From positions 768,001-832,000 of the forward strand of contig JANVYR010000001.1 in assembly GCA_030059665.1 (NCBI GenBank): a stretch of DNA of 64,000 nt, read 5' to 3'. Each line of letters begins with the position of its first letter. Within the stretch, counting starts at the first letter, position 1. Below the pieces are notes generated by a model that ran no database searches, was not told the origin of the DNA, and saw only the letters and a program-made list of their open reading frames with translations. Below are positions 1-20,927 of the stretch, in pieces. The translations under genes and the position numbers were made by a program. The DNA is from Candidatus Calditenuis fumarioli. Its GTDB lineage: Archaea > Thermoproteota > Nitrososphaeria_A > Caldarchaeales > Calditenuaceae.

Positions 1-603
1 CAGGGCGATGCAGTGCATCTCAGGAGCGTTGCACTGGTGCGGGCAGCTAGAGACGGTTATCTTGTGTTTTCTCGGGAGATTGCTGTATCTCCTGTTCCCG
101 TAGAAGTATTCCGCCAGCTCGAATAGCGTGGGCCTCACGTCGAAGAGCTCCTCAGGGTTAACGCCTGATAGGGGGCAGGAAGTGATGTTCCTTACCGTAT
201 CTCCGCAACCGGCAGCCGTGGTCAGTCCAACATCGAGCAGCCTCGAGAAGACCTCGGGTACGTCCTCTAGCCTGATCCAATGGAGCTGGACGTTCTGCCT
301 GGTAGTCAACTCTATGTATCCCCTTCCAAACGCCTCGGCAATCTCCGCAATGGCCTTTGCCTGTTCCCAGCTCAGGATTCCTCCCGGTAACTTTATCCTG
401 ACCATGAAGTACCCAAGCCTTGGCTTGTCGTGGTAAAGCCCCCACCACTGGAGCCTTACAACGTCCTCCTCAGGTATAGCTTCGTAGCCCTTGTCTATCA
501 GGCTGTATATCTCGTCCAGGACGTCCAGCGGGTGCTTCTCGAGCTTCATGCGCTCCCTGGGGTTCCTTCTCAACGCCTCCTCCATGCTGACAGACCCTGA
601 CAT
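1..603 (-). CDS. Ferredoxin-dependent sulfite/nitrite reductase, N-terminal part (runs off the window start)
   Basis: Not in the ORF track. Manual translation from ATG 603: MSGSVSMEEALRGTPRERMKLEKHPLD...RLQWWGLYHDKPRLGYFMVRIKLPGG...ELTTRQNVQLHWI...GCGDTVRNITSCP...NLPRKHKI. These are NirA/Sir motifs; the gene is divergent from sat. Confidence 0.9.
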   Translation of the reverse strand, partial: MSGSVSMEEALRRNPRERMKLEKHPLDVLDEIYSLIDKGYEAIPEEDVVRLQWWGLYHDKPRLGYFMVRIKLPGGILSWEQAKAIAEIAEAFGRGYIELTTRQNVQLHWIRLEDVPEVFSRLLDVGLTTAAGCGDTVRNITSCPLSGVNPEELFDVRPTLFELAEYFYGNRRYSNLPRKHKITVSSCPHQCNAPEMHCIAL

Positions 604-644
604 CCTCTCGTAACGCGAGATGGAGCTTTCTCAAAAATATTTGT

Positions 645-695
645 CATAATATCGCAAAATTAGTCAAGCATAATATTCAAATAGAACTATATAAG
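645..695. promoter_or_regulatory. Divergent sir/sat promoter region: CATAATAT twice (645-652, 669-676) and a TATA-like TATATAAG (688-695)
   Basis: Motifs read directly in the A/T-rich intergenic region; function inferred. Confidence 0.4.
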
Positions 696-709
696 CATGC
701 ATCCACCGA

Positions 710-1867
710 ATGAACGCGCCTTACGGCGGAAGGCTCGTCGACCGCTTGGTCAAGGGAGGTAGGGCGGAGAAGTTGAGAGAGGAGGCACGGGAGCTGCAGC
801 CGATTCGCTTGTCGGCGGAAGAGGAGCTGGACCTCGACAAGATCGCGATTGGAGCCTATAGCCCGCTCGAAGGGTTCATGACGAGGGAGGAGCTCGAGTC
901 GGTCATTTCGAAGGGGGAGCTGCCGAGTGGGCTTCCGTGGACAATCCCCATTCTCCTGGATGCCAGACGGGAGGAGGTTAGGTTCTCAGAGGGCGACGAG
1001 GTCAGGCTAGAGGGGGAGACGTTTGGCGCGCTTGGTGTCATGAGGGTAGAGGAGATCTACGAGGTGGATCAGAAGGAGGTGGCCCAAAGGGTCTATGGTA
1101 CCCTCGACCCGCGTCACCCTAACGTGCGGAGGCTGCTCACCAAGGGTGAAGGTGTAGCCATAGGAGGTAGAGTGGAGCTCATCGAAAGGCCGGCATTCAA
1201 CGGTGTCGTGGGGCCGTACGAGCTCACGCCTTCAGAGGTCAGGGCCTTGATAAGCGAAAGGGGATGGAGGACCGTGGTCGGATTCCAGTGCAGGAATCCG
1301 CCCCATCTCGGACACGAATACATACAGAGGCTAGCGATGGAGCTTTACGACGGCCTGCTGATACACCCCGTCACGGGGCTCCTGAAGGAGGACGATTATC
1401 CGCCTGAAGCTATAATCGAGGCCTACGAGGCCCTAGTCGGCAATTACTACCCGAAGGGAAAGGTCCTCCTAGCATCGCTGGGAATCGAGATGAGGTACGC
1501 CGGACCGAAGGCCGCCGTTTTCCTGGCTATCATCAGGAGGAATTACGGGTGCACTCACTTCGTCGTCGGAAGGGACCTGGCTGGCGTAGGGGGTTTCTAC
1601 GACCCCTACGAGGCTCAACAGGTCCTCAGGAGCATGAGGGACGAGTTGGGAATAGAGCCGATCTGCGTCAAAGAGGTCTACTACTGCGGGAAGTGCGGTT
1701 GGGGTGTTACCGAGAACACTTGCACCCACGTCGGATGGTCTTATAACGTCACGACGATAAGCCAGACTTACATCAGGTCCGTTCTGAGACGCGGTGGCAC
1801 AGTCCCAGCAGGAGTGCTGAGGGAGGAGGTGCTCGAAGTCCTGAGGAAGTATTACCAGCGGAACTGA
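710..1867 (+). CDS. sat: Sulfate adenylyltransferase
   Basis: PYGGRLVDRL N-terminus, FQCRNPPHLGHEY, MRYAGPKAA, RRNYGCTHFVVGRD, C-terminal CxxC Zn site. Confidence 0.96.
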   Translation: MNAPYGGRLVDRLVKGGRAEKLREEARELQPIRLSAEEELDLDKIAIGAYSPLEGFMTREELESVISKGELPSGLPWTIPILLDARREEVRFSEGDEVRLEGETFGALGVMRVEEIYEVDQKEVAQRVYGTLDPRHPNVRRLLTKGEGVAIGGRVELIERPAFNGVVGPYELTPSEVRALISERGWRTVVGFQCRNPPHLGHEYIQRLAMELYDGLLIHPVTGLLKEDDYPPEAIIEAYEALVGNYYPKGKVLLASLGIEMRYAGPKAAVFLAIIRRNYGCTHFVVGRDLAGVGGFYDPYEAQQVLRSMRDELGIEPICVKEVYYCGKCGWGVTENTCTHVGWSYNVTTISQTYIRSVLRRGGTVPAGVLREEVLEVLRKYYQRN

Positions 1868-1882
1868 GGGGAGCGGCAGACC

Positions 1883-2632
1883 ATGCTACCACATGTCTTG
1901 CCGGCATTGGGCTTCGTGGGTGGGTTCCTGTTGGGGTTAGTGGGGTTCGGTTGGGGATCCACAATCCTCCCTCTCTTGATCCTTCTGGAGGCAGATCCCA
2001 AGGTAGCCATAGGGGCCGTAGTGACGTCGAACACCGTCATGTGCCTCCTGGGCAGCCTTAGGTACGGGAACTCGAAGCTCTTCAGCTGGAGGGTCGCAGC
2101 TCCCACGGCTGCAGCCGCCATATCAGCTGCCCTAGTGGGAACCGCTTTCAGCACGCTTCTACCAGGGAAGGTGGTCGTTGCGGTCCTGGGTCTCTACCTG
2201 ACGGTGGGAGGGGTATCGCTAGCTCTCCGCCCTCCAAGCTTCAAGAGGAGCCCCGACGGAGCCACCGTTGCGCTCTGGAAGTTCGTTGCAGGAGGAGCCA
2301 TACCTGGCTTCTTCGAAGGTGCTTACGGGTCCGGAGGACCTGCTGGCATGCTTACGCTTATGATGCTTAGGGTCCCTGTGAAGGTCGCTATAGGCAGCTG
2401 GCTTACGGCATCCCTGTTGAGCCAGGGAGCGGCTTCTGTAGTATACGGGGTCCAGGGAATCGTGGACCCGGTGATGACTGGGTTACTAGTCGTTGGCGGC
2501 ATCCCTGCCATGATCTTAGGGAGCCATATCACCATAAAGAGGCTGGCTGATTCTACCATCGAAAGGGTAGCCGGTTTAGCGATCTTCCTGTTGGGCTCAA
2601 GATTGATCGCGATAAACGTGCTTCATTTCTGA
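1883..2632 (+). CDS. TauE/SafE sulfite exporter family membrane protein
   Basis: About 8 TM segments in two repeats (GLVGFGWG / GAYGSGG; DPKVAIG / PVKVAIG); follows sat. Confidence 0.85.
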   Translation: MLPHVLPALGFVGGFLLGLVGFGWGSTILPLLILLEADPKVAIGAVVTSNTVMCLLGSLRYGNSKLFSWRVAAPTAAAAISAALVGTAFSTLLPGKVVVAVLGLYLTVGGVSLALRPPSFKRSPDGATVALWKFVAGGAIPGFFEGAYGSGGPAGMLTLMMLRVPVKVAIGSWLTASLLSQGAASVVYGVQGIVDPVMTGLLVVGGIPAMILGSHITIKRLADSTIERVAGLAIFLLGSRLIAINVLHF

Positions 2633-11447: not shown

Positions 11448-12386
11448 TCACTTGCACGTCAGGCCGAGCGCTCTGCTCACCTCGGTCAACGCGGACCGCG
11501 GGTCAGGTCCTATGGGCAGCCCTATGCAGACGTGATCCACGCCAGCCTTCGAGATCTCGCGACAACCCTCCGCGAAGTCCTCCGCCGGCCCGAAGAAGGC
11601 GAAGTTGCCGATCAGGTCCTCCAGGCGTTTGTCGGGGCGATCCCAGCTCACGTACCTCAGCTCGTCAGGACCCACACCGGCGAAGGAGAGCATCGGCGAC
11701 CGCCCCACCAGCTCCCAAAGGTACTTCCGCAGCACAGGCCCGAGGAACTCCAGCGCCCTCCTCCTGTCGTCGCATATGCAACAGAAAGGCCTCGCGATGA
11801 CTTCGAACCCTTCCCTTTCCCTGCCAGCCTCCGAGAGCGACCGGCGTATAACGTCCACCAGGAAGCGAGCGTAATCCGTGTTCCAGAGGCCGTCCACGAC
11901 GACGCCCTTCACGAAGGGCAGCTTACAGACCTCGGAGATCAGCCTCGGGCCTGAGGTGCCCACCAGGATCGCGGGCGTCCTGCGAGTCCACCAGTCCAGG
12001 CACGGTCCGGTCCTGCAGCACAGCAGATCCGCAAGCGTTCTGAGGTAGCCCACGAAGTCCCTGACCTTCGGCCTGCCAGTGCCCATCGTCTCGCTGAACG
12101 CTCCCCTCGATACCCCGATCAGGGCCCTCTCGCCTGCGAACTCCGCGAGAGACTGAACGAGTCGGGCCAACGTGAAGGGATCGTAGGCGAAGGACGGTAC
12201 GGTCACCGGCCCAACGGCCACCCTCCTCGTCCTAGACGCTATCAGGAACGCCAGCGGCCACGCGGGCCTGTTGATCATGTGCTCGTATATCTGGACCGAG
12301 TGGAAGCCGCAGTTTTCCGCGCGGACCGCGAGATCGAGGAGCTCGTCGTATCTCTTGGAACATTCCAGCGCAACGCTGAACAGCAC
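11448..12386 (-). CDS. LLM-class (luciferase-like/Mer-like) flavin- or F420-dependent oxidoreductase
   Basis: RAENCGFHSVQIYEH, LIASRTRRVAVGP, GTSGPRL, AGVDHVCIGLPIGP. Confidence 0.8.
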   Translation of the reverse strand: MLFSVALECSKRYDELLDLAVRAENCGFHSVQIYEHMINRPAWPLAFLIASRTRRVAVGPVTVPSFAYDPFTLARLVQSLAEFAGERALIGVSRGAFSETMGTGRPKVRDFVGYLRTLADLLCCRTGPCLDWWTRRTPAILVGTSGPRLISEVCKLPFVKGVVVDGLWNTDYARFLVDVIRRSLSEAGREREGFEVIARPFCCICDDRRRALEFLGPVLRKYLWELVGRSPMLSFAGVGPDELRYVSWDRPDKRLEDLIGNFAFFGPAEDFAEGCREISKAGVDHVCIGLPIGPDPRSALTEVSRALGLTCK

Positions 12387-12442
12387 GTCGCTCGTCCTCC
12401 ATGCACTCGCTTAACCGTTCACGTCACATCAGATTGAGGTTT

Positions 12443-12964
12443 TCAAAGGGCTCGGAGGTGGTTCTCGATGTTCTCAGCGAGCATCCTTGCGACCGACCGC
12501 GGGTCGAAGGGCCAGGCGTAGACCACCTTCTTCGGGGAGATCTTCTCCCTGTAACGCTCGATCACCGACGGTATCTCCTCCTCGGCGTGCTCGCCACCGC
12601 GTGTGGTCATCGTCGTCACAACCACTATCACGTCGACGTCGCTCCTCGAAGCCTCATCAAGCACCTCCTCCAGCGTAGGCGCGCAGAACTCGTTGAAGGC
12701 CACCCAGACCTCGTCGTATCTTCCGATCCGCTTCAGCTCCTCCGAAAGCACCCTCAGCGAGTGCGCGTACGGGTCGTTCGCATCGTTGCGGGGCCAGCTC
12801 ATGATGGTTTTCTCGAGGGACCTCAGCCTCTCTTCCTCCTCAGCTGACCTGCTGGCCTTGAACTTCAGGCTCAGGTACTCTCCCTTCATTTTGGGTGGGA
12901 GGTCCTTCGGCAGCTGACCGTGACCTACGAGGATCACGCCGACCTTGGGTCTGTTCTCCCTCAC
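12443..12964 (-). CDS. CbiX/SirB-type class II chelatase with an insertion after the GHG motif
   Basis: ILVGHG, VAFNEFCAPTLEE, RGGEHAEEEIP. Confidence 0.85.
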   Translation of the reverse strand: MRENRPKVGVILVGHGQLPKDLPPKMKGEYLSLKFKASRSAEEEERLRSLEKTIMSWPRNDANDPYAHSLRVLSEELKRIGRYDEVWVAFNEFCAPTLEEVLDEASRSDVDVIVVVTTMTTRGGEHAEEEIPSVIERYREKISPKKVVYAWPFDPRSVARMLAENIENHLRAL

Positions 12965-13102
12965 GGCTCGAACCCGTTCACGCAGCCTATAAATCGGAAC
13001 GGACGTTCACTTCCATGAAGATCCCGCACGTCCAGGTCGCGAGGTCACTGAGCATCGAACGAAGCTCGAGGCCCAGATCAAGAGCGATCACGAGAGCGCT
13101 TC

Positions 13103-14287
13103 TCACGGTCGAACCGGTCTCTCGTCCAACGGATCGTAGACGCAGGAGGGATCGGATTCCAGAGGATCCCCTGTGAAGGAGAAGGCTCTGGCCCTAGATC
13201 CGCCGCAGACGAGCCTGTACTCGCAGAGACCGCACCTCCCCTTGAACCTCCCCTCCCTCATCGCCAGCAGGAGCGGATGCTCCCGGTAGATCCCGACGAT
13301 GGATTGCGTCTTGACGTTTCCGAGTCGGACAGGCAGGAATCCGGACGGGTAGACGTCGCCGTTGTACGCCACGAATATCACTCCGTTGCCGTCACGCGTG
13401 GGGATGAAGGCGCTATCGGCTTCTTGCACGGGAGGCCCGAGGAGCTCGTTGAGTTCCGCCTGCAGGCGATCGAGGAGGGCCTCACCCTCACCGACAGGCC
13501 TCACCCACGAGCCCAGCTTGACCCGCCTGAAGAAGGGAGCCTCCACGGTCCTGACCTGCAACCCCCTCCTCGAGACCTCGAGCAGGAACCGCATGACGAC
13601 CTCGTACTCCCATGGTCTTATGTCGAGCTCGGCCACAGCCCTCCCCGTGACCACAAGGAAGAAGACCTCCCAGACGGTGACTCCGAGCCTCCTGAGCAAG
13701 CGTGCGATCCTCGGCAGCTCCAGAACGTTCCTCCTCCAGACCACCGTGTTGACCTGGACCCGGAGCCCCTCTTCCAGCGCCTCCCTGATCGCCTTAACCG
13801 TTGACTCGAAGGACCCGTTGACCATCCTCATGTAGTCGTGGGTCTCTGGACCAGCGCCGTCGAGGCTGACGGACATCATCTTCACTCCTGACGCCTTCAG
13901 GCGTCTCATCACCTCCCGGGTGAGGTGCGGCGAGACGGCCGGCGAGACAGCTACCGGCACGGACAGTTCGTTCGCTTTCTCGATGAGGTCGAAGAGGTCC
14001 CTCCTCTGGAGCGGGTCACCGCCAGTCAGCACCAGCAGCGGCTTGGGATCTCCGAAGCTCGCGACCTCCTCGATCAGCCTGAACCCCTCTTCCGTCGTGA
14101 GCTCTCCCGGAAGGGGGTTGGGTATGGCCATGGCCCTGCAGTGCCTGCAGGCCAGAGGACAGGCCTTAGTAGTCTCCCAGAAGACCAGTAACGGTGACCT
14201 CTTGAACCTCTCCAGCCAGGCGCCGAGCTTCTCGTCGAGGTAAGGTGGTCTTCCGCTGATCCCCTCAACGGAGTAGGTGCCCACCAC
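13103..14287 (-). CDS. ahbD: AhbD/NirJ-like radical SAM-SPASM protein (TIGR04053-like), probable Fe-coproporphyrin decarboxylase
   Basis: VFWETTKACPLACRHCRA, LTGGDPL, GDVYPSGFLP, KGRCGLCEYRLVCGGSRARA...DPSC; lies inside the hem operon. Confidence 0.75.
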   Translation of the reverse strand: MVGTYSVEGISGRPPYLDEKLGAWLERFKRSPLLVFWETTKACPLACRHCRAMAIPNPLPGELTTEEGFRLIEEVASFGDPKPLLVLTGGDPLQRRDLFDLIEKANELSVPVAVSPAVSPHLTREVMRRLKASGVKMMSVSLDGAGPETHDYMRMVNGSFESTVKAIREALEEGLRVQVNTVVWRRNVLELPRIARLLRRLGVTVWEVFFLVVTGRAVAELDIRPWEYEVVMRFLLEVSRRGLQVRTVEAPFFRRVKLGSWVRPVGEGEALLDRLQAELNELLGPPVQEADSAFIPTRDGNGVIFVAYNGDVYPSGFLPVRLGNVKTQSIVGIYREHPLLLAMREGRFKGRCGLCEYRLVCGGSRARAFSFTGDPLESDPSCVYDPLDERPVRP

Positions 14288-14293
14288 TGCGCA

Positions 14294-14776
14294 TCACCCG
14301 AACCTCAGCGCGGTTCCTAAGACCGCGAGGGCGATGGACAGGACCACGGTCGCCCACCCTACGATCACGATCCTCCTCCTGAGGGCACGAGCACCGTTTG
14401 AGTTCGCTATCCTTGCGATTGAGGCCCCCAGGGACGAATGGTACTCGACCAGGATCAGGACAGCGGTACCCAGCATCACCTTGAGCAGTACGAGGACTAC
14501 GGGCCTGTACTCGAAGGCAAACGCGAGGAGCGCTGAGAGGAACCCCCTTTGCATCGCGAGGAGAGCGCCGCTGACTATAGCAAGGTAGAGGGAGGTCCTG
14601 GTCAGAGGTCTGAGCCTTCTGCCCATCTCAGAGGATATGGCGATCGACGCAGGGCTGCCGACGAACCGTCTGACGACTCTCACGGCCAGCGAGAGCGAGA
14701 TGATCGAACCTATCCAGATGGATGCGGCGACCACGTGAACTGCCTTGATGAGCATTAGCGTGAGCAGCTCATCCAT
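14294..14776 (-). CDS. Four-TM HemJ/CopD-like membrane protein
   Basis: IKAVHVVAASIWIG, EMGRRL and LLKVML...EYH align by eye to HemJ-clan motifs; 3 nt from hemE and 6 nt from ahbD. Confidence 0.6.
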   Translation of the reverse strand: MDELLTLMLIKAVHVVAASIWIGSIISLSLAVRVVRRFVGSPASIAISSEMGRRLRPLTRTSLYLAIVSGALLAMQRGFLSALLAFAFEYRPVVLVLLKVMLGTAVLILVEYHSSLGASIARIANSNGARALRRRIVIVGWATVVLSIALAVLGTALRFG

Positions 14777-14779
14777 CTC

Positions 14780-15793
14780 TCACGCACCCCACTTCTTCAC
14801 GAACTCCACGAGCGCTCGGAGCGCATCGACCGGTGTGAGGGGATGAACGCCGTGCCCCAGACTGAAGACGTGCCCCCTCCTGCCCTCGGTCGAGACGAGG
14901 ATCCTCGTGGCCTCCTCCAGCACTAGGTGCTGGTCGCAGAGCAGCAGCGAGGGGTCGAGGTTTCCCTGGATGCCTACTGAACGGCCGATCTCAAGCCAGG
15001 CCTTCCTGATGTCAACCGTCCAGTCCACAGCGATGACGTCCGCACCCGTCGTCCCGAGGGACTTCAGCTGATGCGCTGGGAAGCGAACGCAGTATATCAC
15101 AGGCACGTTGAGGCTTTTCGCCCGGAGGACGAGGGACCTGCTGTACTGCAGCACGTGCTTCCGGAACTGTTCGTCGCTGAGGGTGTAAGCGAGGGTGTCG
15201 AAGAGGGCCACGGCCCTGGCACCTGCACGGACCTGCTCCTCGACGTAGATCCCCAGCAACTCCACCAGCGATTCCATGAGCCTCTCCCATTCGGGGCCCC
15301 TCCTCATGAGCGCCCTAACCCGAGCGGCGTCCCTCTCCTTCCCTCCCAACAGGTAGACAGAAGCAGTGTACGGTGCACCCGCGAAGCCTATGATGGGGAC
15401 CGAGTCGGAAAGGATCTTCCTCGAAAGCGACACGGTCTCGTAAACGTAGTGGACCGAGTTCGCCTCGAACCTCCCCAGAAGTCCCAGCAGCTCGGGCAGA
15501 TCGGGGACGTTGGCCAGAAACGGCCCGGAGCCGTCGTAAACCGCCCTCAGACCGGCTCCCTCGAAGGGCGTGAGGAGGTCCGCGAAGACTATGGCGGCGT
15601 CGACTCCCAGAACGCGGACCGGAAGGGCGGTGAGCTCAGCGGAGGACTCGACGTCCCTGAAGAGCTCGTCGAGCGGCCTACCCCGCCTTATCTGCTCGTA
15701 CTGTGGAAGGTACCTTCCGGCCTGTCTCATGAACCAGACGGGCCTCCTCTCGGTCTCCTCCAGCCTGCAGGCCCTAAGGAGCAGGTCGTTCAT
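14780..15793 (-). CDS. hemE: Uroporphyrinogen decarboxylase
   Basis: PVWFMRQAGRYLPQY, DAAIVFADLL, IGFAGAPYT, IQGNLDP, VFSLGHGV. Confidence 0.96.
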   Translation of the reverse strand: MNDLLLRACRLEETERRPVWFMRQAGRYLPQYEQIRRGRPLDELFRDVESSAELTALPVRVLGVDAAIVFADLLTPFEGAGLRAVYDGSGPFLANVPDLPELLGLLGRFEANSVHYVYETVSLSRKILSDSVPIIGFAGAPYTASVYLLGGKERDAARVRALMRRGPEWERLMESLVELLGIYVEEQVRAGARAVALFDTLAYTLSDEQFRKHVLQYSRSLVLRAKSLNVPVIYCVRFPAHQLKSLGTTGADVIAVDWTVDIRKAWLEIGRSVGIQGNLDPSLLLCDQHLVLEEATRILVSTEGRRGHVFSLGHGVHPLTPVDALRALVEFVKKWGA

Positions 15794-15799
15794 CGCACC

Positions 15800-17062
15800 T
15801 CAACCTCCGAGCGACCGCTCGAGCTCGGGGACGACCTCGGAGTGTGACACCGTAACGAAGGAGGCCTCGAACTGCGACGGCGGCATCAGCACACCGGACT
15901 TCAGAAGGGCATCGAAGAAGGCCCTGAACGACCCCGCGTCCGAGGACTTTGCGTCCCTGTAGTTCCTAACGCGTCTTCCGCGGGTGAAGAAGACCGTGAA
16001 CATGGAGCCGACCCTGTTCAGAACGGGGCCCTCACCGAACCCGGAGGCCAGCTTCAGCAGCGCGTCACCGACCCTCCTCCCCACGTCCTCGAGGACCTCG
16101 TACGTCCCACTGCTCAGGCTCCTGACGGTCGCAAGGCCCACGGCCATCACCAGAGGGTTGCCGGCGAAGGTGCCAGCGTGGTAGACTGGCCCCTCAGGCG
16201 CGAGGAGCCTCATCACCTCGGACCTCCCTCCCACGCATCCTATCGGCAGCCCTCCTCCCAGGACCTTCCCGAGGCACGTGAGGTCTGGCTCAACCCGGTA
16301 GAGCTCCTGGGCTCCACCCTTAGCCACCCTGAAGCCCGTAACGACCTCGTCGAAGACGAGGAGACATCCCTCTCTGTCAGCGACCTCCCTCAGCTCCTCG
16401 AGGAACCCGTCCTCGGGCGTCACGACCCCCATGTTCGCCGGTATAGGCTCGAGGAGAATGGCTGCGACCTGGCCCCTGTGACTTCTGAGCGCCCTCCTTA
16501 CGGATTCCACGTCGTTGAACGGCACCACGATTGTGTCGGCCACCACCTCGTCCGGTATCCCAGCTGAGAATGGAACACCGATCATCGATTCAGGATCGCG
16601 TGACTCCTTGACGAGGAGCGAATCGGAATGTCCGTGATAGCAGCCTTCGAAGACCAGGACCTTCTTCCTTTTGGTATAAGCCCTGGCGAGCCTGACCGCC
16701 GTCATGACGCTCTCCGTTCCGGAGTTGGTGAACCGCACGAGCTCCACAGACCTGAAGGATTTGGTGACCTCCTCCGCGAGCTCGACCTCGAGCTCACACG
16801 TCAGGCCCAGCATATGCCCCTCCCTGATCCTCTCAACCGCGGCCGCGACGACCTCATCCTGTGCGTGCCCCAAGATTATCGAGCCCCATCCGCAGATCAG
16901 ATCGATGTACCTCCTTCCGTCCTGATCGTACACGAATGGGCCCTTCGCCCTGGCGAGGACTACGGGATTGGAGCCCACCGACCGGAAGGCCCTCACAGGG
17001 CTGTTAACCCCTCCTACCAGGACCCTCTTGGCCCTCTCGAGGACGAGCGAAGAGCCCATCAC
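15800..17062 (-). CDS. hemL: Glutamate-1-semialdehyde aminomutase
   Basis: GGVNSPVRAF, FEGCYHGH, FDEVVTGFR, GKVLGGGLPIG. Confidence 0.96.
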   Translation of the reverse strand: MMGSSLVLERAKRVLVGGVNSPVRAFRSVGSNPVVLARAKGPFVYDQDGRRYIDLICGWGSIILGHAQDEVVAAAVERIREGHMLGLTCELEVELAEEVTKSFRSVELVRFTNSGTESVMTAVRLARAYTKRKKVLVFEGCYHGHSDSLLVKESRDPESMIGVPFSAGIPDEVVADTIVVPFNDVESVRRALRSHRGQVAAILLEPIPANMGVVTPEDGFLEELREVADREGCLLVFDEVVTGFRVAKGGAQELYRVEPDLTCLGKVLGGGLPIGCVGGRSEVMRLLAPEGPVYHAGTFAGNPLVMAVGLATVRSLSSGTYEVLEDVGRRVGDALLKLASGFGEGPVLNRVGSMFTVFFTRGRRVRNYRDAKSSDAGSFRAFFDALLKSGVLMPPSQFEASFVTVSHSEVVPELERSLGG

Positions 17063-18039
17063 CTACCACCCCGCAGCAGCTCCGCCACCTCCAGGGCCGA
17101 GTAGGTGATGATGACGTCAGCTCCCGCACGCCTGATCGCCATGAGCGCCTCAAGCTCCACCTGAAGGTCGTTGAGCCATCCGAGCCTGCCGGCGGCCCTG
17201 ATCATCGCGTACTCGCCGCTCACGTGGTAAGCAGCGATGGGGACGTTGAAGCGCCTCCTCACCTCAGCTATGACGTCCAGGTAGAAGAGAGCAGGCTTGA
17301 CCATGACGATGTCGGCCCCCTCAGCCACGTCCAGCTCGACCTCCCTGACGGCCTCTCTGGCGTTGGCTGGGTCCATCTGGTAAGTGGACCTGTCGCCGAA
17401 GGCTGGGGCGGATCCGGCGGCCTCCCTGAAGGGGCCGTAGAGCGAAGACGCGAACTTGGCGCTGTAGGACATGATGAGCGTGTCGGTGTAACCTTCCCTG
17501 TCGAGGGCCCTCCTGATCGCGGCCACCTGATGGTCCATCATGGCGCTGGGTGCGACGACGTCCGCTCCAGCCTCAGCGTGGCTCACCGCGGTGCGGGCCA
17601 ATAGCTCGAGCGTCTCGTCGTTCACCACCTTCCCGTTCCTCACGACTCCACAATGCCCGTGGGAGGTGTACTGGCACAGGCAGACGTCCGTCGCTATCAC
17701 GCCCCTGTACCCGCTCGCCCTGAGGGCCCTGACCGCCCTCTGGACTATCCCCTCCCTGCTGTAGGCCATCGATCCCAGCTCGTCCTTCACCGAAGGGATG
17801 CCGAAGACGAGCAGCCCGGCCACCCCCAGCTCCTCAGCCCTCGGCGCGACGTCGTTCACCAGCACGTCCACCGAGACCCTCTCCACCCCGGGAAGCGAGT
17901 TCAGGGGCTCCCTGATCCCCTCCCCCTCCCTCACGAAGACCGGGTATAGGAACCTCGAGGGCCGTAGGTCCGTCTCCCTCACCATCGACCTTATCGCCGG
18001 AGAGATCCTGAGCCTTCTGAGCCTCACCACCTCATGCAA
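17059..18039 (-). CDS. hemB: Porphobilinogen synthase (Zn type)
   Basis: DVCLCQYTSHGHCG, APSAMMDHQV, MSYSAKFAS, MVKP. Confidence 0.97.
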   Translation of the reverse strand: MHEVVRLRRLRISPAIRSMVRETDLRPSRFLYPVFVREGEGIREPLNSLPGVERVSVDVLVNDVAPRAEELGVAGLLVFGIPSVKDELGSMAYSREGIVQRAVRALRASGYRGVIATDVCLCQYTSHGHCGVVRNGKVVNDETLELLARTAVSHAEAGADVVAPSAMMDHQVAAIRRALDREGYTDTLIMSYSAKFASSLYGPFREAAGSAPAFGDRSTYQMDPANAREAVREVELDVAEGADIVMVKPALFYLDVIAEVRRRFNVPIAAYHVSGEYAMIRAAGRLGWLNDLQVELEALMAIRRAGADVIITYSALEVAELLRGGR

Positions 18040-18760
18040 CGCGCATCACCCTCCGGAGCTCCCTGACCAGGCCGTCGAGCGAGTGCTCCTCAGCAACTGC
18101 CATCACCTCCAGTCCATGTTCCCTAGCGGCCGCCGAGGTAACCGGTCCAATGCAGATCGCCGGCCTCGGTTCGCAGCCTTGTAGCTCGCAGAGCGTCCGG
18201 TAAGCCCTGGCAGCGCTCGGAGAGCCCAGAAGGACGACCGAGTGATCCCTCGGCAGCTCCACGTCCTCTCTCACCCTGACCGAATAGGCCCTAACCTGCA
18301 CGACGCTCCTAGCGCCTCTCCTCAGCAAGGCTGAAACGAGCTCGTCGCTTGCAAGGGCGGATCTGAAGGCTATCACCGATGTGCCCTCGACGTCAGGCAG
18401 TTCCTCGGCTAGAGCGGAGACCGTGTACCTCTTCGGGACGAAAACCTCACCGTCCCAGATCGCCCTTAAGGCTTCGGCGCTCGCTGGCCCGACGGCCCCG
18501 ACGCGTCTCAGACCGTCAAGCGGTCTCCTCAGCCCCACACGATCGGCGACGAGCGAGATCGACCGCACGGCGTTTACGCTGGTGAATATCCCCCAGTCGT
18601 ATTCGCGTATCGATCTGAGTGATTCGGCAACCACATTGAAGTTCGTTTCCTCTACTAACGCGTCGAGTGCTGTAAACGGGATCCCGATTCTGTTGAGGAC
18701 CGAACCGGCTCTCCTGCAGAACCCTTCCGTTCCGACGACCAGGACGTTAATAGCCCGCAT
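18032..18760 (-). CDS. hemD: Uroporphyrinogen-III synthase
   Basis: IFTSVNAV, AVGPASAEAL, LGSPSA, ICIGPVT; position in the operon. Confidence 0.88.
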   Translation of the reverse strand: MRAINVLVVGTEGFCRRAGSVLNRIGIPFTALDALVEETNFNVVAESLRSIREYDWGIFTSVNAVRSISLVADRVGLRRPLDGLRRVGAVGPASAEALRAIWDGEVFVPKRYTVSALAEELPDVEGTSVIAFRSALASDELVSALLRRGARSVVQVRAYSVRVREDVELPRDHSVVLLGSPSAARAYRTLCELQGCEPRPAICIGPVTSAAAREHGLEVMAVAEEHSLDGLVRELRRVMRVA

Positions 18761-19644
18761 CAGCCCCCACCACTCATCTCCTTCACGATTCGATCGATCA
18801 GGCGGTCAACCGAGTCCAGAGGTCCCTCGACGTTCGACCTCCTGAGCCCTCTATCGCCGGTGCTCACCGCAACGATCCTGATGCGACCGTCAGCCACCAT
18901 TGCGTTGACTCCGACTGGGACCCTGCAGCCTCCGCCGAGCAGTCGGGCGACCCTCCGCTCGACCTCCACCTCGAGCCTAGCCTTTCTGTCCTCTATGGTG
19001 CCGAAGAGCTCGACCAACTCGGCGTTCTCGGCGAGGCACTCCACTGCTATCGCTCCCTGACCCGGTGCTGGAACGAGGCGATCCACATCGAAGACCTCCG
19101 ATGCCAGATGGTCGAGTCCCAGACGCTTGAGCGCAGCATACGAGATCACCGCGGCATCGCATGCGCTGTGCTCCAGAACCTTCCTGACCCTCGTGTCGAC
19201 GTTCCCCCTCAACTCGACTATCTCGACGTCTGGCCTCAGCTCCCTCAACTGCACCGCTCGCCTCTCGCTTGACGTCCCTACCTTTGCACCGCTCCTCAGC
19301 TCGTGAAGCGACCTCCTGTCCCTCGAGACTAGGGCGTCGCGCGGGTCGTCCCGCAGGGGCACCGACGCGAGGACCAGTCCATCGGGCCCCTCCAGCGGAA
19401 GGTCCTTCAGGCTGTGCACCGCGGCGTCTATCTCGCCGTCGAGGCACTTCTGCTGCAGCGTCCTGACGAAGGCCCCCTTCCCCCAGCTCCCAGGACGCGT
19501 CGGCTGGTCCTCATCCCCCTCCGCCACCACCTTCACGATCTCTACATCGACGTCGGGATGTCTGCCCTGTAGCAAACGGGCAACCGTCTCCGCCTGCATC
19601 ACGGCCAGCCTGCTCCTCCTCGTTCCCAGCCTTACGCTCCTCAC
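18760..19644 (-). CDS. hemC: Hydroxymethylbilane synthase
   Basis: GTRRSRLA, AVHSLKDLP, GTSSERR, LRGNVDTR, LGGGCRVPVG. Confidence 0.97.
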   Translation of the reverse strand: MRSVRLGTRRSRLAVMQAETVARLLQGRHPDVDVEIVKVVAEGDEDQPTRPGSWGKGAFVRTLQQKCLDGEIDAAVHSLKDLPLEGPDGLVLASVPLRDDPRDALVSRDRRSLHELRSGAKVGTSSERRAVQLRELRPDVEIVELRGNVDTRVRKVLEHSACDAAVISYAALKRLGLDHLASEVFDVDRLVPAPGQGAIAVECLAENAELVELFGTIEDRKARLEVEVERRVARLLGGGCRVPVGVNAMVADGRIRIVAVSTGDRGLRRSNVEGPLDSVDRLIDRIVKEMSGGG

Positions 19645-20849
19645 TGCCGGACACGCCCCGCTGCTAGGACCACCTCGAGGCCGTGGGGCGAGGCAGACGC
19701 ATCAGTCACGTCACCGTTCTCGGGAATCGCCCTGATGTTCTCGGTGAGGTCGTGCAGAAGCCTGTTGGCGAGCCGCTCCAGCGCCTTCCGGAGGACGCCT
19801 TCAGGGCCGAGCCCTCGGCCCAACATGGTCATCGCGGTTGCGAGCTCCTCCTCGATCGCGCTCGCCGCCTTGGACCTGATGAGGCGTACCGTCTCCTCGG
19901 CCGAGATCCTCTCGGAGAGCCACTCGAGCGACTCCTCCACGGCCCCCTTTATCACCGATCGGGCGACCAGCAGCTCGCGTTCCGATATCCTGAACCGCTT
20001 TTCCGCAATCTCGGCCACGTCGTCCACGTTCATGTAATTTCCGCAGGCGTCGCGTACCTGAGATGGGTCGAGGGAGCGCGGGAAGGAGAGGTCCACGACG
20101 ACTTCGGGACGCTTCCCCTCGATGACCCTCCTCAGCACGTCCCCGGCCACTGGTCCCTTAGTCGCCGAAACGACGGCATCGAAACCACCTTTCCCCAGAT
20201 CGTCCAGTCGGTCCCAATGTACGGTGAATATGTGACCTACATCCCAATCGAGCTCCCTTCTGCGGGTCAACGCGTAGAGCCTGATGTCCCTGCCGGAGGA
20301 CCGCAGTGACCTCGCGACGTCGATCGCCATGCTCCCTGAGCCCACCAACAGGACCCTTGAGCCGTCGCTCAGGAACTCCGAAACCAGCTCGCCGGTGAAC
20401 GTGCCGAGCGACCTGTAAGGGACATCCAGAACGTTCCTTATCCTTCTGCCGACGGAGGAGGCCAGCCTGAGGAGTTCCCGCAGGACCGACGAGTACTTGC
20501 CCTCCCCGTACACCTCCGCGTTCTCCACCTGGTCGGCGATCTGCGGTTCGAAGGGCACCGCTGACTCGAGCCCCGAGGCGACCGAAAGCAGATGCTCGAG
20601 CGCGGAACGGCCCAGGTGAACGTAGTGCCCCTCTGTCTCCTTGAACGGGGAGGCGCCGTATTCCCCCTCCGACGGCAGCAGCGCGACCATCTCGATCCTG
20701 TGGCAGGTCTTCACCAGTGCGATCGAACGGGCCCGTACGGTCCTGAACGCTTCCCCTCCCGCGACTGCCCTGCTCAACTCGGTGTACAACACCTCCCGGG
20801 TTTGGATGGAGGCCGTTTTGTAATTGACACCAATTATACCCAGCAGCAC
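19641..20849 (-). CDS. hemA: Glutamyl-tRNA reductase
   Basis: GVNYKTA, KTCHRIE, VASGLES...EPQI, LLVGSGSMA, VDLSFPR. GTG 20849 taken as the start (track start 20900). Confidence 0.9.
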   Translation of the reverse strand: MLLGIIGVNYKTASIQTREVLYTELSRAVAGGEAFRTVRARSIALVKTCHRIEMVALLPSEGEYGASPFKETEGHYVHLGRSALEHLLSVASGLESAVPFEPQIADQVENAEVYGEGKYSSVLRELLRLASSVGRRIRNVLDVPYRSLGTFTGELVSEFLSDGSRVLLVGSGSMAIDVARSLRSSGRDIRLYALTRRRELDWDVGHIFTVHWDRLDDLGKGGFDAVVSATKGPVAGDVLRRVIEGKRPEVVVDLSFPRSLDPSQVRDACGNYMNVDDVAEIAEKRFRISERELLVARSVIKGAVEESLEWLSERISAEETVRLIRSKAASAIEEELATAMTMLGRGLGPEGVLRKALERLANRLLHDLTENIRAIPENGDVTDASASPHGLEVVLAAGRVRQ

Positions 20850-20927
20850 CTTGTGATTTTCCTTGTGATTTTCACCAAATGTTGCGCGCATTTTTGTCAA
20901 AAAAATGAAACTGGTCCTTTATATAAA
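20849..20927. promoter_or_regulatory. hem operon leader: tandem 12-bp repeat CCTTGTGATTTT x2 (20849-20872) and palindromic TATA TTTATATAAA (20918-20927)
   Basis: Read directly from the sequence; function inferred. Confidence 0.5.

Follow-up and report, generated by a model that had tools for sequence, protein, structure and literature searches.

A putative coproporphyrin-type heme b operon with candidate substitute late enzymes in Candidatus Calditenuis fumarioli

Candidatus Calditenuis fumarioli is an archaeon whose proteins have their nearest named relatives in hot-spring Calditenuaceae (Caldarchaeales, formerly Aigarchaeota). The 64,000-nt stretch of its genome analysed here (positions 768,001 to 832,000 of contig JANVYR010000001.1, assembly GCA_030059665.1; the whole stretch is termed the window) carries a run of heme biosynthesis genes, nine of which, from hemA to a gene for a CbiX-type chelatase, may form a single operon for the synthesis of heme b by a coproporphyrin-type route with substitute late enzymes. 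It is likely that the products of this operon complete heme with none of the canonical late enzymes, starting at the uroporphyrinogen decarboxylase HemE and ending at an AhbD-type enzyme, whilst the full chain as set out here is given an even chance of being correct, judged from sequence. HemA, HemL, HemB, HemC and HemD belong to the families that lead to uroporphyrinogen III, and HemE to the family that decarboxylates it to coproporphyrinogen III. A membrane protein of the CopD clan with four transmembrane helices (4-TM), which is the best candidate for the next step, would then oxidise coproporphyrinogen III to coproporphyrin III, acting like HemJ as a membrane-bound dehydrogenase that probably depends on heme b. 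The long CbiX-type protein, as a homodimer, would insert Fe2+ to give coproheme, and a radical SAM enzyme of the TIGR04053 family, which orthology suggests is the AhbD of non-methanogenic archaea, would decarboxylate two propionates to vinyls to yield heme b, a product that could feed heme-copper oxidase and heme A synthase. These archaea have retained hemA to hemE and an AhbD-type gene, yet have no known enzyme for coproporphyrinogen oxidation and iron insertion; comparison across genomes points to a single candidate for either step, within a compact block of four genes.

The heme operon and the missing late enzymes

Ten open reading frames (ORFs), all on the minus strand, occupy positions 11448-20900 of the window, and the genes were assigned by their matches to Pfam and NCBIfam profiles. 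The first gene of the operon, here and in relatives, is hemA (19641..20900), encoding a divergent glutamyl-tRNA reductase that matches PF05201, PF00745 and PF01488 and reaches 128 bits with TIGR01035, under the cut-off of that model. It is followed, with a 4-nt overlap, by hemC (hydroxymethylbilane synthase, 18760..19644; TIGR00212, 286 bits, above cut-off) and, with a further 1-nt overlap, by hemD (uroporphyrinogen-III synthase, 18032..18760; PF02602, 108 bits), then by hemB (porphobilinogen synthase, 17059..18039; NF006762, 471 bits) and hemL (glutamate-1-semialdehyde aminomutase, 15800..17062; NF000818, 531 bits). The uroporphyrinogen decarboxylase gene hemE (14780..15793) scores 304 bits against a cut-off of 303 with TIGR01464 and 294 bits with PF01208. 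The gene for the 160-aa 4-TM protein (14294..14776) encodes a candidate coproporphyrinogen oxidase, named as such from its family members, its structural model and its context, and is followed by that for the AhbD-type radical SAM/SPASM enzyme (13103..14287; TIGR04053, 497 bits against a cut-off of 395), the proposed coproheme decarboxylase. Last come the genes for a long CbiX-type class II chelatase of 173 aa, the proposed ferrochelatase (12443..12964; PF01903, 41 bits against a cut-off of 22), and for a luciferase-like (LLM) oxidoreductase (11448..12386; PF00296).

From hemA through hemL there are four overlaps of 1-8 nt, and gaps of 6, 3 and 6 nt then lead on to the radical SAM gene, an arrangement that agrees with an initial annotation of this DNA, in which these eight genes were described as overlapping or 3-6 nt apart. 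The gap from the radical SAM gene to the CbiX gene is 138 nt and that from CbiX to the LLM gene 56 nt, distances too wide for tight coupling of these two genes. The LLM protein had been put forward as one of two possible oxidases. This proposal fell away, since no LLM counterpart was found near the operons at six related loci and the gene stands beside the operon in the Calditenuis fumarioli genome only, 56 nt from CbiX and outside the conserved set; the LLM oxidoreductase is outside the system. It is Mer-like and probably F420-dependent, and among related operons it adjoins CbiX only here.

The initial annotation had also noted that the canonical late enzymes are missing from the cluster. This holds equally for the whole genome, which comprises 1.57 Mb in three contigs (62% G+C, tRNAs with introns) and is 91% complete; all six frames were searched. 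HemH (PF00762) gave no match, ChdC/HemQ (PF06778) none at E≤0.01 and HemJ (PF03653) none at E≤1, and neither CgoN (DUF1444, PF07285), HemF nor a HemN_C domain was found. For HemY/CgoX the best match to TIGR00562 was 15.9 bits. The best match to the AhbC model (TIGR04546) was the operon's own AhbD-type gene, with 111 bits against a cut-off of 650, and no second NirJ-like paralogue was found. AhbA/AhbB (PF17805; NF040707, NF040708) gave a single PF17805 match of 29 bits, on contig 2, which is not AhbA/B but an ordinary Lrp/AsnC regulator. Thus neither of the rival sets that might have explained heme synthesis from elsewhere in the genome, ahbABC or hemY/hemH/hemQ, was found. The organism nevertheless needs heme, because it encodes cytochrome oxidase subunit II (COX2) and a compact heme A synthase (CtaA). 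The latter, a CtaA/COX15-like protein, is very short at 150 aa (L081:192-644; G000:C1:233691-234143, where G000 is the Calditenuis fumarioli genome of the window and C1 its contig), and an F420/NADP oxidoreductase-like gene overlaps the 3' end of its gene. Near-identical DNA is present in hot-spring metagenomes from 12 studies.

The absence of cysG, also claimed initially, holds for the cluster only: elsewhere in the genome, approximately 14 kb away, lie SUMT (SirA) and a CysG-N/SirC-like gene (C1:764106-765495; SUMT matches TIGR01469 with 252 bits). These two genes are part of a complete assimilatory sulfate-reduction locus that straddles the left end of the window (window 1-2632 together with C1:764106-768603). 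On one strand it carries a siroheme sulfite reductase of 537 aa, which reaches into the first 603 nt of the window, a PAPS reductase, two small unassigned ORFs, the SirC-like gene and SUMT; divergent from these are an ATP sulfurylase (710-1867) and a TauE permease (1883-2632).

Conservation of the HemE block

The set was followed in 41 genomes of the order, G000 included, and in 201 genomes of the phylum, 25 of them from the same order. Within the order sample a true HemE above cut-off was found in eight genomes, the 4-TM protein (at E≤1e-15) in nine, TIGR04053 above cut-off in nine, hemC in 11 and CbiX in 14, and HemH in 0 of the 41. SUMT is present in four: G000 and three genomes of another family, all three lacking HemE. 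Each of the eight HemE genomes carries hemC, the 4-TM protein (E≤1e-37), TIGR04053 above cut-off and one CbiX, and seven of the eight are without SUMT. The ninth genome with both a 4-TM protein and the radical SAM enzyme is G204, in which the block has decayed: what is left of hemE is its last 136 residues, CbiX is broken across three frames with a stop, and hemC is absent. Metagenome contigs L090 and L091 (JGI) show decay like that of the G204 contig (L078; G204:C74), the radical SAM gene being frameshifted in one assembly. The hemE-4TM-rSAM-CbiX block (rSAM, radical SAM gene) seems, from these sequences, to have been lost as a unit in G204/L090.

The initial annotation had asked whether the order hemE-4TM-rSAM-CbiX is conserved in relatives. 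Four assemblies keep it (G000, GCA_053493515.1, G206 and G215), their 4-TM proteins being as little as 34% identical. The full order hemA-C-D-B-L-E-4TM-rSAM-CbiX is found in GCA_053493515.1 and G206, and G215 has hemL-hemE-4TM-rSAM-CbiX running to the end of its contig; the genes lie scattered in G114 and G212. The three other genomes from the genus of Calditenuis fumarioli lack the entire set, hemC included, which agrees with the heme auxotrophy that has been reported for Calditenuis and most Aigarchaeota (PMC4681859).

At the level of the phylum, true HemE was found in four of the 201 genomes, all four in the same order. AhbA/B was found in 66 of the 201 and in none of the 25 sampled from the order, nor in G000. 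TIGR04053 above cut-off was found in 35 of the 201, mainly in Thermoprotei-like families that also bear AhbA/B; in this sample TIGR04053 stands either alongside AhbAB or alongside HemE. Further afield, 80 TIGR04053-like loci from species genomes were examined, and in six of them, all archaeal, the radical SAM gene has a 4-TM ORF as its immediate neighbour: two metagenome-assembled genomes (MAGs) of Thermoplasmata, one of Parvarchaeota, two of Nitrososphaerota/Thaumarchaeota and one unclassified archaeon. Two of these, the Thermoplasmata MAG L155 and the Nitrososphaerota MAG L149, hold hemE, the radical SAM gene, the 4-TM gene and further early genes of the pathway. In the place of CbiX they have a true HemH (PF00762, 259 and 268 bits), which adjoins the 4-TM gene or hemE. 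HemY/CgoX was not found above cut-off in any of the 13 genomes bearing the set.

Candidate enzymes and rival explanations of the late steps

The 4-TM protein of the window has no Pfam match of its own, and no match to the HemJ/UPF0093 model PF03653 at E≤10. Among 23 members of its family, 12 match CopD and nine weakly match HemJ/UPF0093 (best E 1.1e-5), with further matches to DUF2269 and DUF4149; the link to HemJ is therefore one of clan only. The AlphaFold2 model (predicted local distance difference test score, pLDDT, of 94) has four long helices and one short one and fits CopD/DUF4149 clusters with a template-modelling (TM) score of 0.87; a Foldseek search of the PDB gave no match at E≤0.001, and a profile search of PDB sequences with the 4-TM family found nothing. 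The label 'HemJ-like' given initially thus survives as shared clan membership, whilst the closest families are CopD and DUF4149. Conserved in the family are His14, Trp21, Gly23, Lys99 and His113, of which His14, in helix 1, is nearly invariant among the 23 members and is kept in the Thermoplasmata (L155), Parvarchaeota and Nitrososphaerota copies (this comparison of distant copies left out L173).

If the 4-TM protein is not the oxidase, the route from HemE to AhbD could still run, with coproporphyrinogen oxidised non-enzymatically in hot oxic springs or by an unrecognised soluble enzyme; the 4-TM protein would then be an accessory, for example a membrane heme-b protein that accepts electrons from AhbD, or one concerned with the handling or export of heme or porphyrin. 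AhbD requires an electron acceptor and none has been identified so far (PMC10114771), and in every compact version of the operon the 4-TM and radical SAM genes are direct neighbours, the pair being the invariant core in the six other archaeal genomes; homologues also occur in ammonia-oxidiser-like archaea that have AhbAB and lack HemE. Within the order, however, the 4-TM protein is found only alongside HemE (counting the decayed hemE remnant of G204), and it is mostly absent from the Thermoprotei-like families with AhbAB and TIGR04053 (0/15 genomes in family f14, 0/6 in f25 and 0/2 in f20). AhbD therefore works without it there, and the 4-TM protein tracks the HemE branch rather than AhbD. No other conserved oxidase candidate was found around the operon, and we regard an accessory role as unlikely.

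The radical SAM enzyme is assigned to the AhbD side of the Ahb pathway by its relatives. TIGR04053 is a sister family of AhbD without an assigned function in NCBIfam, and a literature search found no paper mentioning it; the AhbD model TIGR04545 comes second, with 257 bits against a cut-off of 500, which is not passed, and the AhbC model reaches 141 bits. The enzyme has the radical SAM motif CX3CX2C (CPLACRHC, residues 43-50). Measured against the reference C-terminal SPASM/Twitch motif CX2CX5CX2CX17C, it has cysteines at C352, C355, C361 and C382 and Ser364 where the AuxI-ligand cysteine would be. This agrees with the AuxII-only pattern described for the AhbDs of non-methanogenic archaea by Fix et al. 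(PMC10452713). The protein is approximately 60% identical to TIGR04053 proteins of Thermoprotei. In genome G022 a TIGR04053 gene (516 bits) is followed by a fused AhbA/B gene and then by an AhbC/NirJ1-like radical SAM gene, which makes TIGR04053 the AhbD-side paralogue of Ahb-pathway archaea, and adjacent TIGR04053/Ahb gene pairs occur in several other genomes. At the bacterial loci among the 80 no 4-TM neighbour was found. In Streptosporangiaceae (L086/L087) the TIGR04053 gene shows translational coupling not with heme genes but with one for an NMO-family (nitronate monooxygenase-like) flavoprotein of 500 aa; bacterial members may have a different partner or substrate, and their contexts are uninformative on the archaeal set.

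The same proteins could also be placed in the protoporphyrin order, with the radical SAM enzyme acting as HemN/CgdH on coproporphyrinogen III, the 4-TM protein as HemJ/PgdH2, and CbiX inserting iron into protoporphyrin IX. AhbD and CgdH perform identical chemistry, the decarboxylation of propionate to vinyl (PMC10114771), the two orders of steps are indistinguishable by gene content, and the 4-TM family has its clan and its weak HemJ/UPF0093 matches in common with PgdH2. Nevertheless, the close Thermoprotei homologues of the radical SAM enzyme lie in ahbD-ahbAB-ahbC clusters, where the substrate must be coproheme, the enzyme itself is far under any HemN-type model in a genome without a HemN_C domain, and the 4-TM protein is nearer to CopD/DUF4149 than to HemJ. 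AhbD is also thought to use the iron of its substrate in electron transfer (PMC10114771), a role that implies a metallated substrate and therefore favours coproheme. Taken together, these points make the protoporphyrin order quite improbable.

The CbiX of the operon is the sole CbiX of the genome and belongs to a long subfamily of approximately 170 aa in which His15 and His126 are invariant. Its approximately 45 extra residues form two helices inserted after the first strand, and the subfamily has the motifs WPR, NDPY and NEFC.P. The fold is that of CfbA/CbiXS (Foldseek probability 1.00, TM score 0.72-0.78 depending on target). A homodimer was modelled with a score of 0.91, against 0.00 for the best control, with 98% or more of contacts shared between runs and pLDDT of 91 or more; of proteins solved as one-chain pairs, 20 of 30 attain the 0.91 mark, and of those solved as single chains one of 23 does. 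This pass may reflect memory of solved CbiXS/CfbA dimers. As seven of the eight HemE relatives have no SUMT, sirohydrochlorin cannot be the substrate of their CbiX, and the HemH found at the position of CbiX in L155 and L149 offers the best indirect evidence that CbiX is the ferrochelatase here. The initial proposal that CbiX inserts the iron thus gains support from these two observations, both of them comparative. In Calditenuis fumarioli itself SUMT and a sulfite reductase are present and CbiX stands alone, so this one enzyme may also act in making siroheme for that reductase, whose gene is close by.

That the association is due to chance, with CbiX a SirB for sulfite reductase only, the 4-TM protein a CopD-like copper or metal protein, and the late steps missing or elsewhere, heme perhaps being scavenged, is very unlikely: it would suit the siroheme genes and single chelatase of this genome, the reported auxotrophy of the group and the persistence of CbiX-like genes in relatives without any heme genes, but the relatives without SUMT keep CbiX, which lies directly after the radical SAM gene in four assemblies, HemH takes its place elsewhere, the four-gene block decays as a unit, the strict co-occurrence of the 4-TM protein with HemE is hard to reconcile with random placement, and hemA to hemE with AhbD would be senseless without the intervening steps.

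Several observations weigh against the proposed coproporphyrin route. The assignments of oxidation, chelation and decarboxylation are drawn from sequence, context and models, and every genome-wide absence is qualified by the 91% completeness. For the oxidase, the 4-TM protein of the window fails to match the HemJ model, the Thermoplasmata and Parvarchaeota copies lack the second conserved histidine of the family, and in the ammonia-oxidiser-like family f5 a homologue of approximately 25% identity is found in 26 of 26 genomes, all of which have AhbAB and no HemE, at loci apart from any heme genes. For the chelatase, the genome itself requires a siroheme chelatase, the CbiX gene is separated from the radical SAM gene by 138 nt, and in G098, HR02 (G166) and G205 the operon stops at the radical SAM gene, with CbiX elsewhere in the genome. 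CbiX-like orthologues also occur in five relatives without hemC, hemE, the 4-TM protein or the radical SAM enzyme, a sixth CbiX-bearing relative (G204) has only the decayed block, and in genus g2 the long CbiX lies beside topoisomerase VI B. The long subfamily is, in addition, common in Nitrospira, where it is found in photolyase/LitR-type clusters and not with heme, siroheme or B12 genes.

Some details of these neighbourhoods may be recorded. The f5 homologue of the 4-TM protein has 165 aa (for example L050, G196:C1:1590445-1590921), and a second copy of the 4-TM module lies within an ORF of approximately 926 aa that is not near heme genes. In genus g2 (L064, L065, L067, L068 and L072) the CbiX neighbourhood consists of a KH-domain protein, topoisomerase VI B, CbiX, a metallophosphoesterase, an HTH_10 regulator, a multicopper oxidase and SCO1; it is fixed whether or not the genome has heme genes, and gave no hint of function. 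Nitrospira MAGs L074 and L075 have CbiX homologues of approximately 40% identity, with a DNA photolyase, a MerR/B12-binding (LitR-like) regulator, DUF1722, an epimerase/DUF1731 protein and an amine oxidase as neighbours, a context that hints at a role in light stress, possibly the handling of free porphyrins.

Comparison with known heme biosynthesis systems

Of the hybrid coproporphyrin route proposed initially, the missing late enzymes and the gene order have stood, whilst the role of the LLM protein and the HemJ label beyond the clan have not. Within the order, moreover, HemE co-occurs strictly with the 4-TM protein and an AhbD-type enzyme. Wider claims may be advanced more tentatively, at somewhat less than an even chance: that the 4-TM protein represents a new type of membrane oxidase for coproporphyrinogen III, that the long CbiX is a coproporphyrin ferrochelatase, and that an archaeal route sharing only HemE with its bacterial counterpart exists in HemH- or CbiX-using versions in Caldarchaeales, Thermoplasmata, acidophilic Nitrososphaerota and DPANN. 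If true, there would be a new family of porphyrinogen oxidases and a new substrate class for CbiX-type chelatases, and archaea would have reached the coproporphyrin route by combining a bacterial-type HemE with their own AhbD. For cultivation, this lineage appears self-sufficient in heme, as against most Calditenuaceae, which are heme auxotrophs (PMC4681859).

A 2026 review states that the enzymes of three described routes cover all known heme-making organisms (PMC13564367). The combination of HemE and AhbD without other Ahb enzymes has already been published for Gram-positive bacteria that use the coproporphyrin route (PMC13564367; PMC10114771). A CopD-clan protein as candidate oxidase and a CbiX-type chelatase in the coproporphyrin route were not found in a literature search, nor was anything linking DUF4149/CopD to coproporphyrinogen oxidation; the new content is the CbiX replacement and the SUMT argument behind it. 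The Gram-positive route is alike in its HemE branch point, in the proposed intermediates (coproporphyrinogen III, coproporphyrin III and coproheme), in its AhbD-type last step and in the absence of AhbA/B/C. It is unlike in using CgoX or CgoN and the HemH-type CpfC, all of which are missing here, where the candidates are a small class II chelatase of the CbiX type and a CopD-clan 4-TM oxidase in an archaeal host. Of the four enzymes of the canonical coproporphyrin-dependent route (HemE, CgoX, CpfC and ChdC), only HemE is present, and an AhbD-type enzyme stands instead of ChdC. The siroheme-dependent Ahb pathway shares the orthologous group of its last enzyme (TIGR04053) and a CbiX-type chelatase with the system described here, and G000 has SUMT and a precorrin-2 dehydrogenase-like gene, within the sulfate-assimilation operon; it differs in that AhbA/B and AhbC are absent here, with HemE instead, and in that seven of the eight set-bearing relatives have no SUMT.

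The individual candidates can be compared in the same way. HemJ/PgdH2 (UPF0093), with which Gram-negative bacteria and cyanobacteria oxidise protoporphyrinogen IX, is a small membrane b-heme protein of the same clan as the 4-TM protein; it has four or five helices and a conserved helix-1 histidine, which in HemJ is a heme ligand, and acts next to a porphyrinogen-producing step. It differs in that the 4-TM protein has no PF03653 match and is nearer to CopD/DUF4149, and in that the substrate proposed for the latter is coproporphyrinogen, not protoporphyrinogen; there is no solved structure for comparison. CbiXS, CfbA and SirB, the chelatases that insert Co, Ni or Fe into sirohydrochlorin, are like the long CbiX in their PF01903 domain, two catalytic histidines, fold and predicted homodimer, and differ from it in that the long form has the two-helix insert and occurs in genomes unable to make sirohydrochlorin. 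Closest of all are the sets of Thermoplasmata and acidophilic Nitrososphaerota (L155 and L149), which have the same HemE, TIGR04053-like radical SAM enzyme and 4-TM family in adjacent genes, but use a canonical HemH ferrochelatase where the Caldarchaeales sets, in an order with HemH in 0 of 41 genomes, have the long CbiX.

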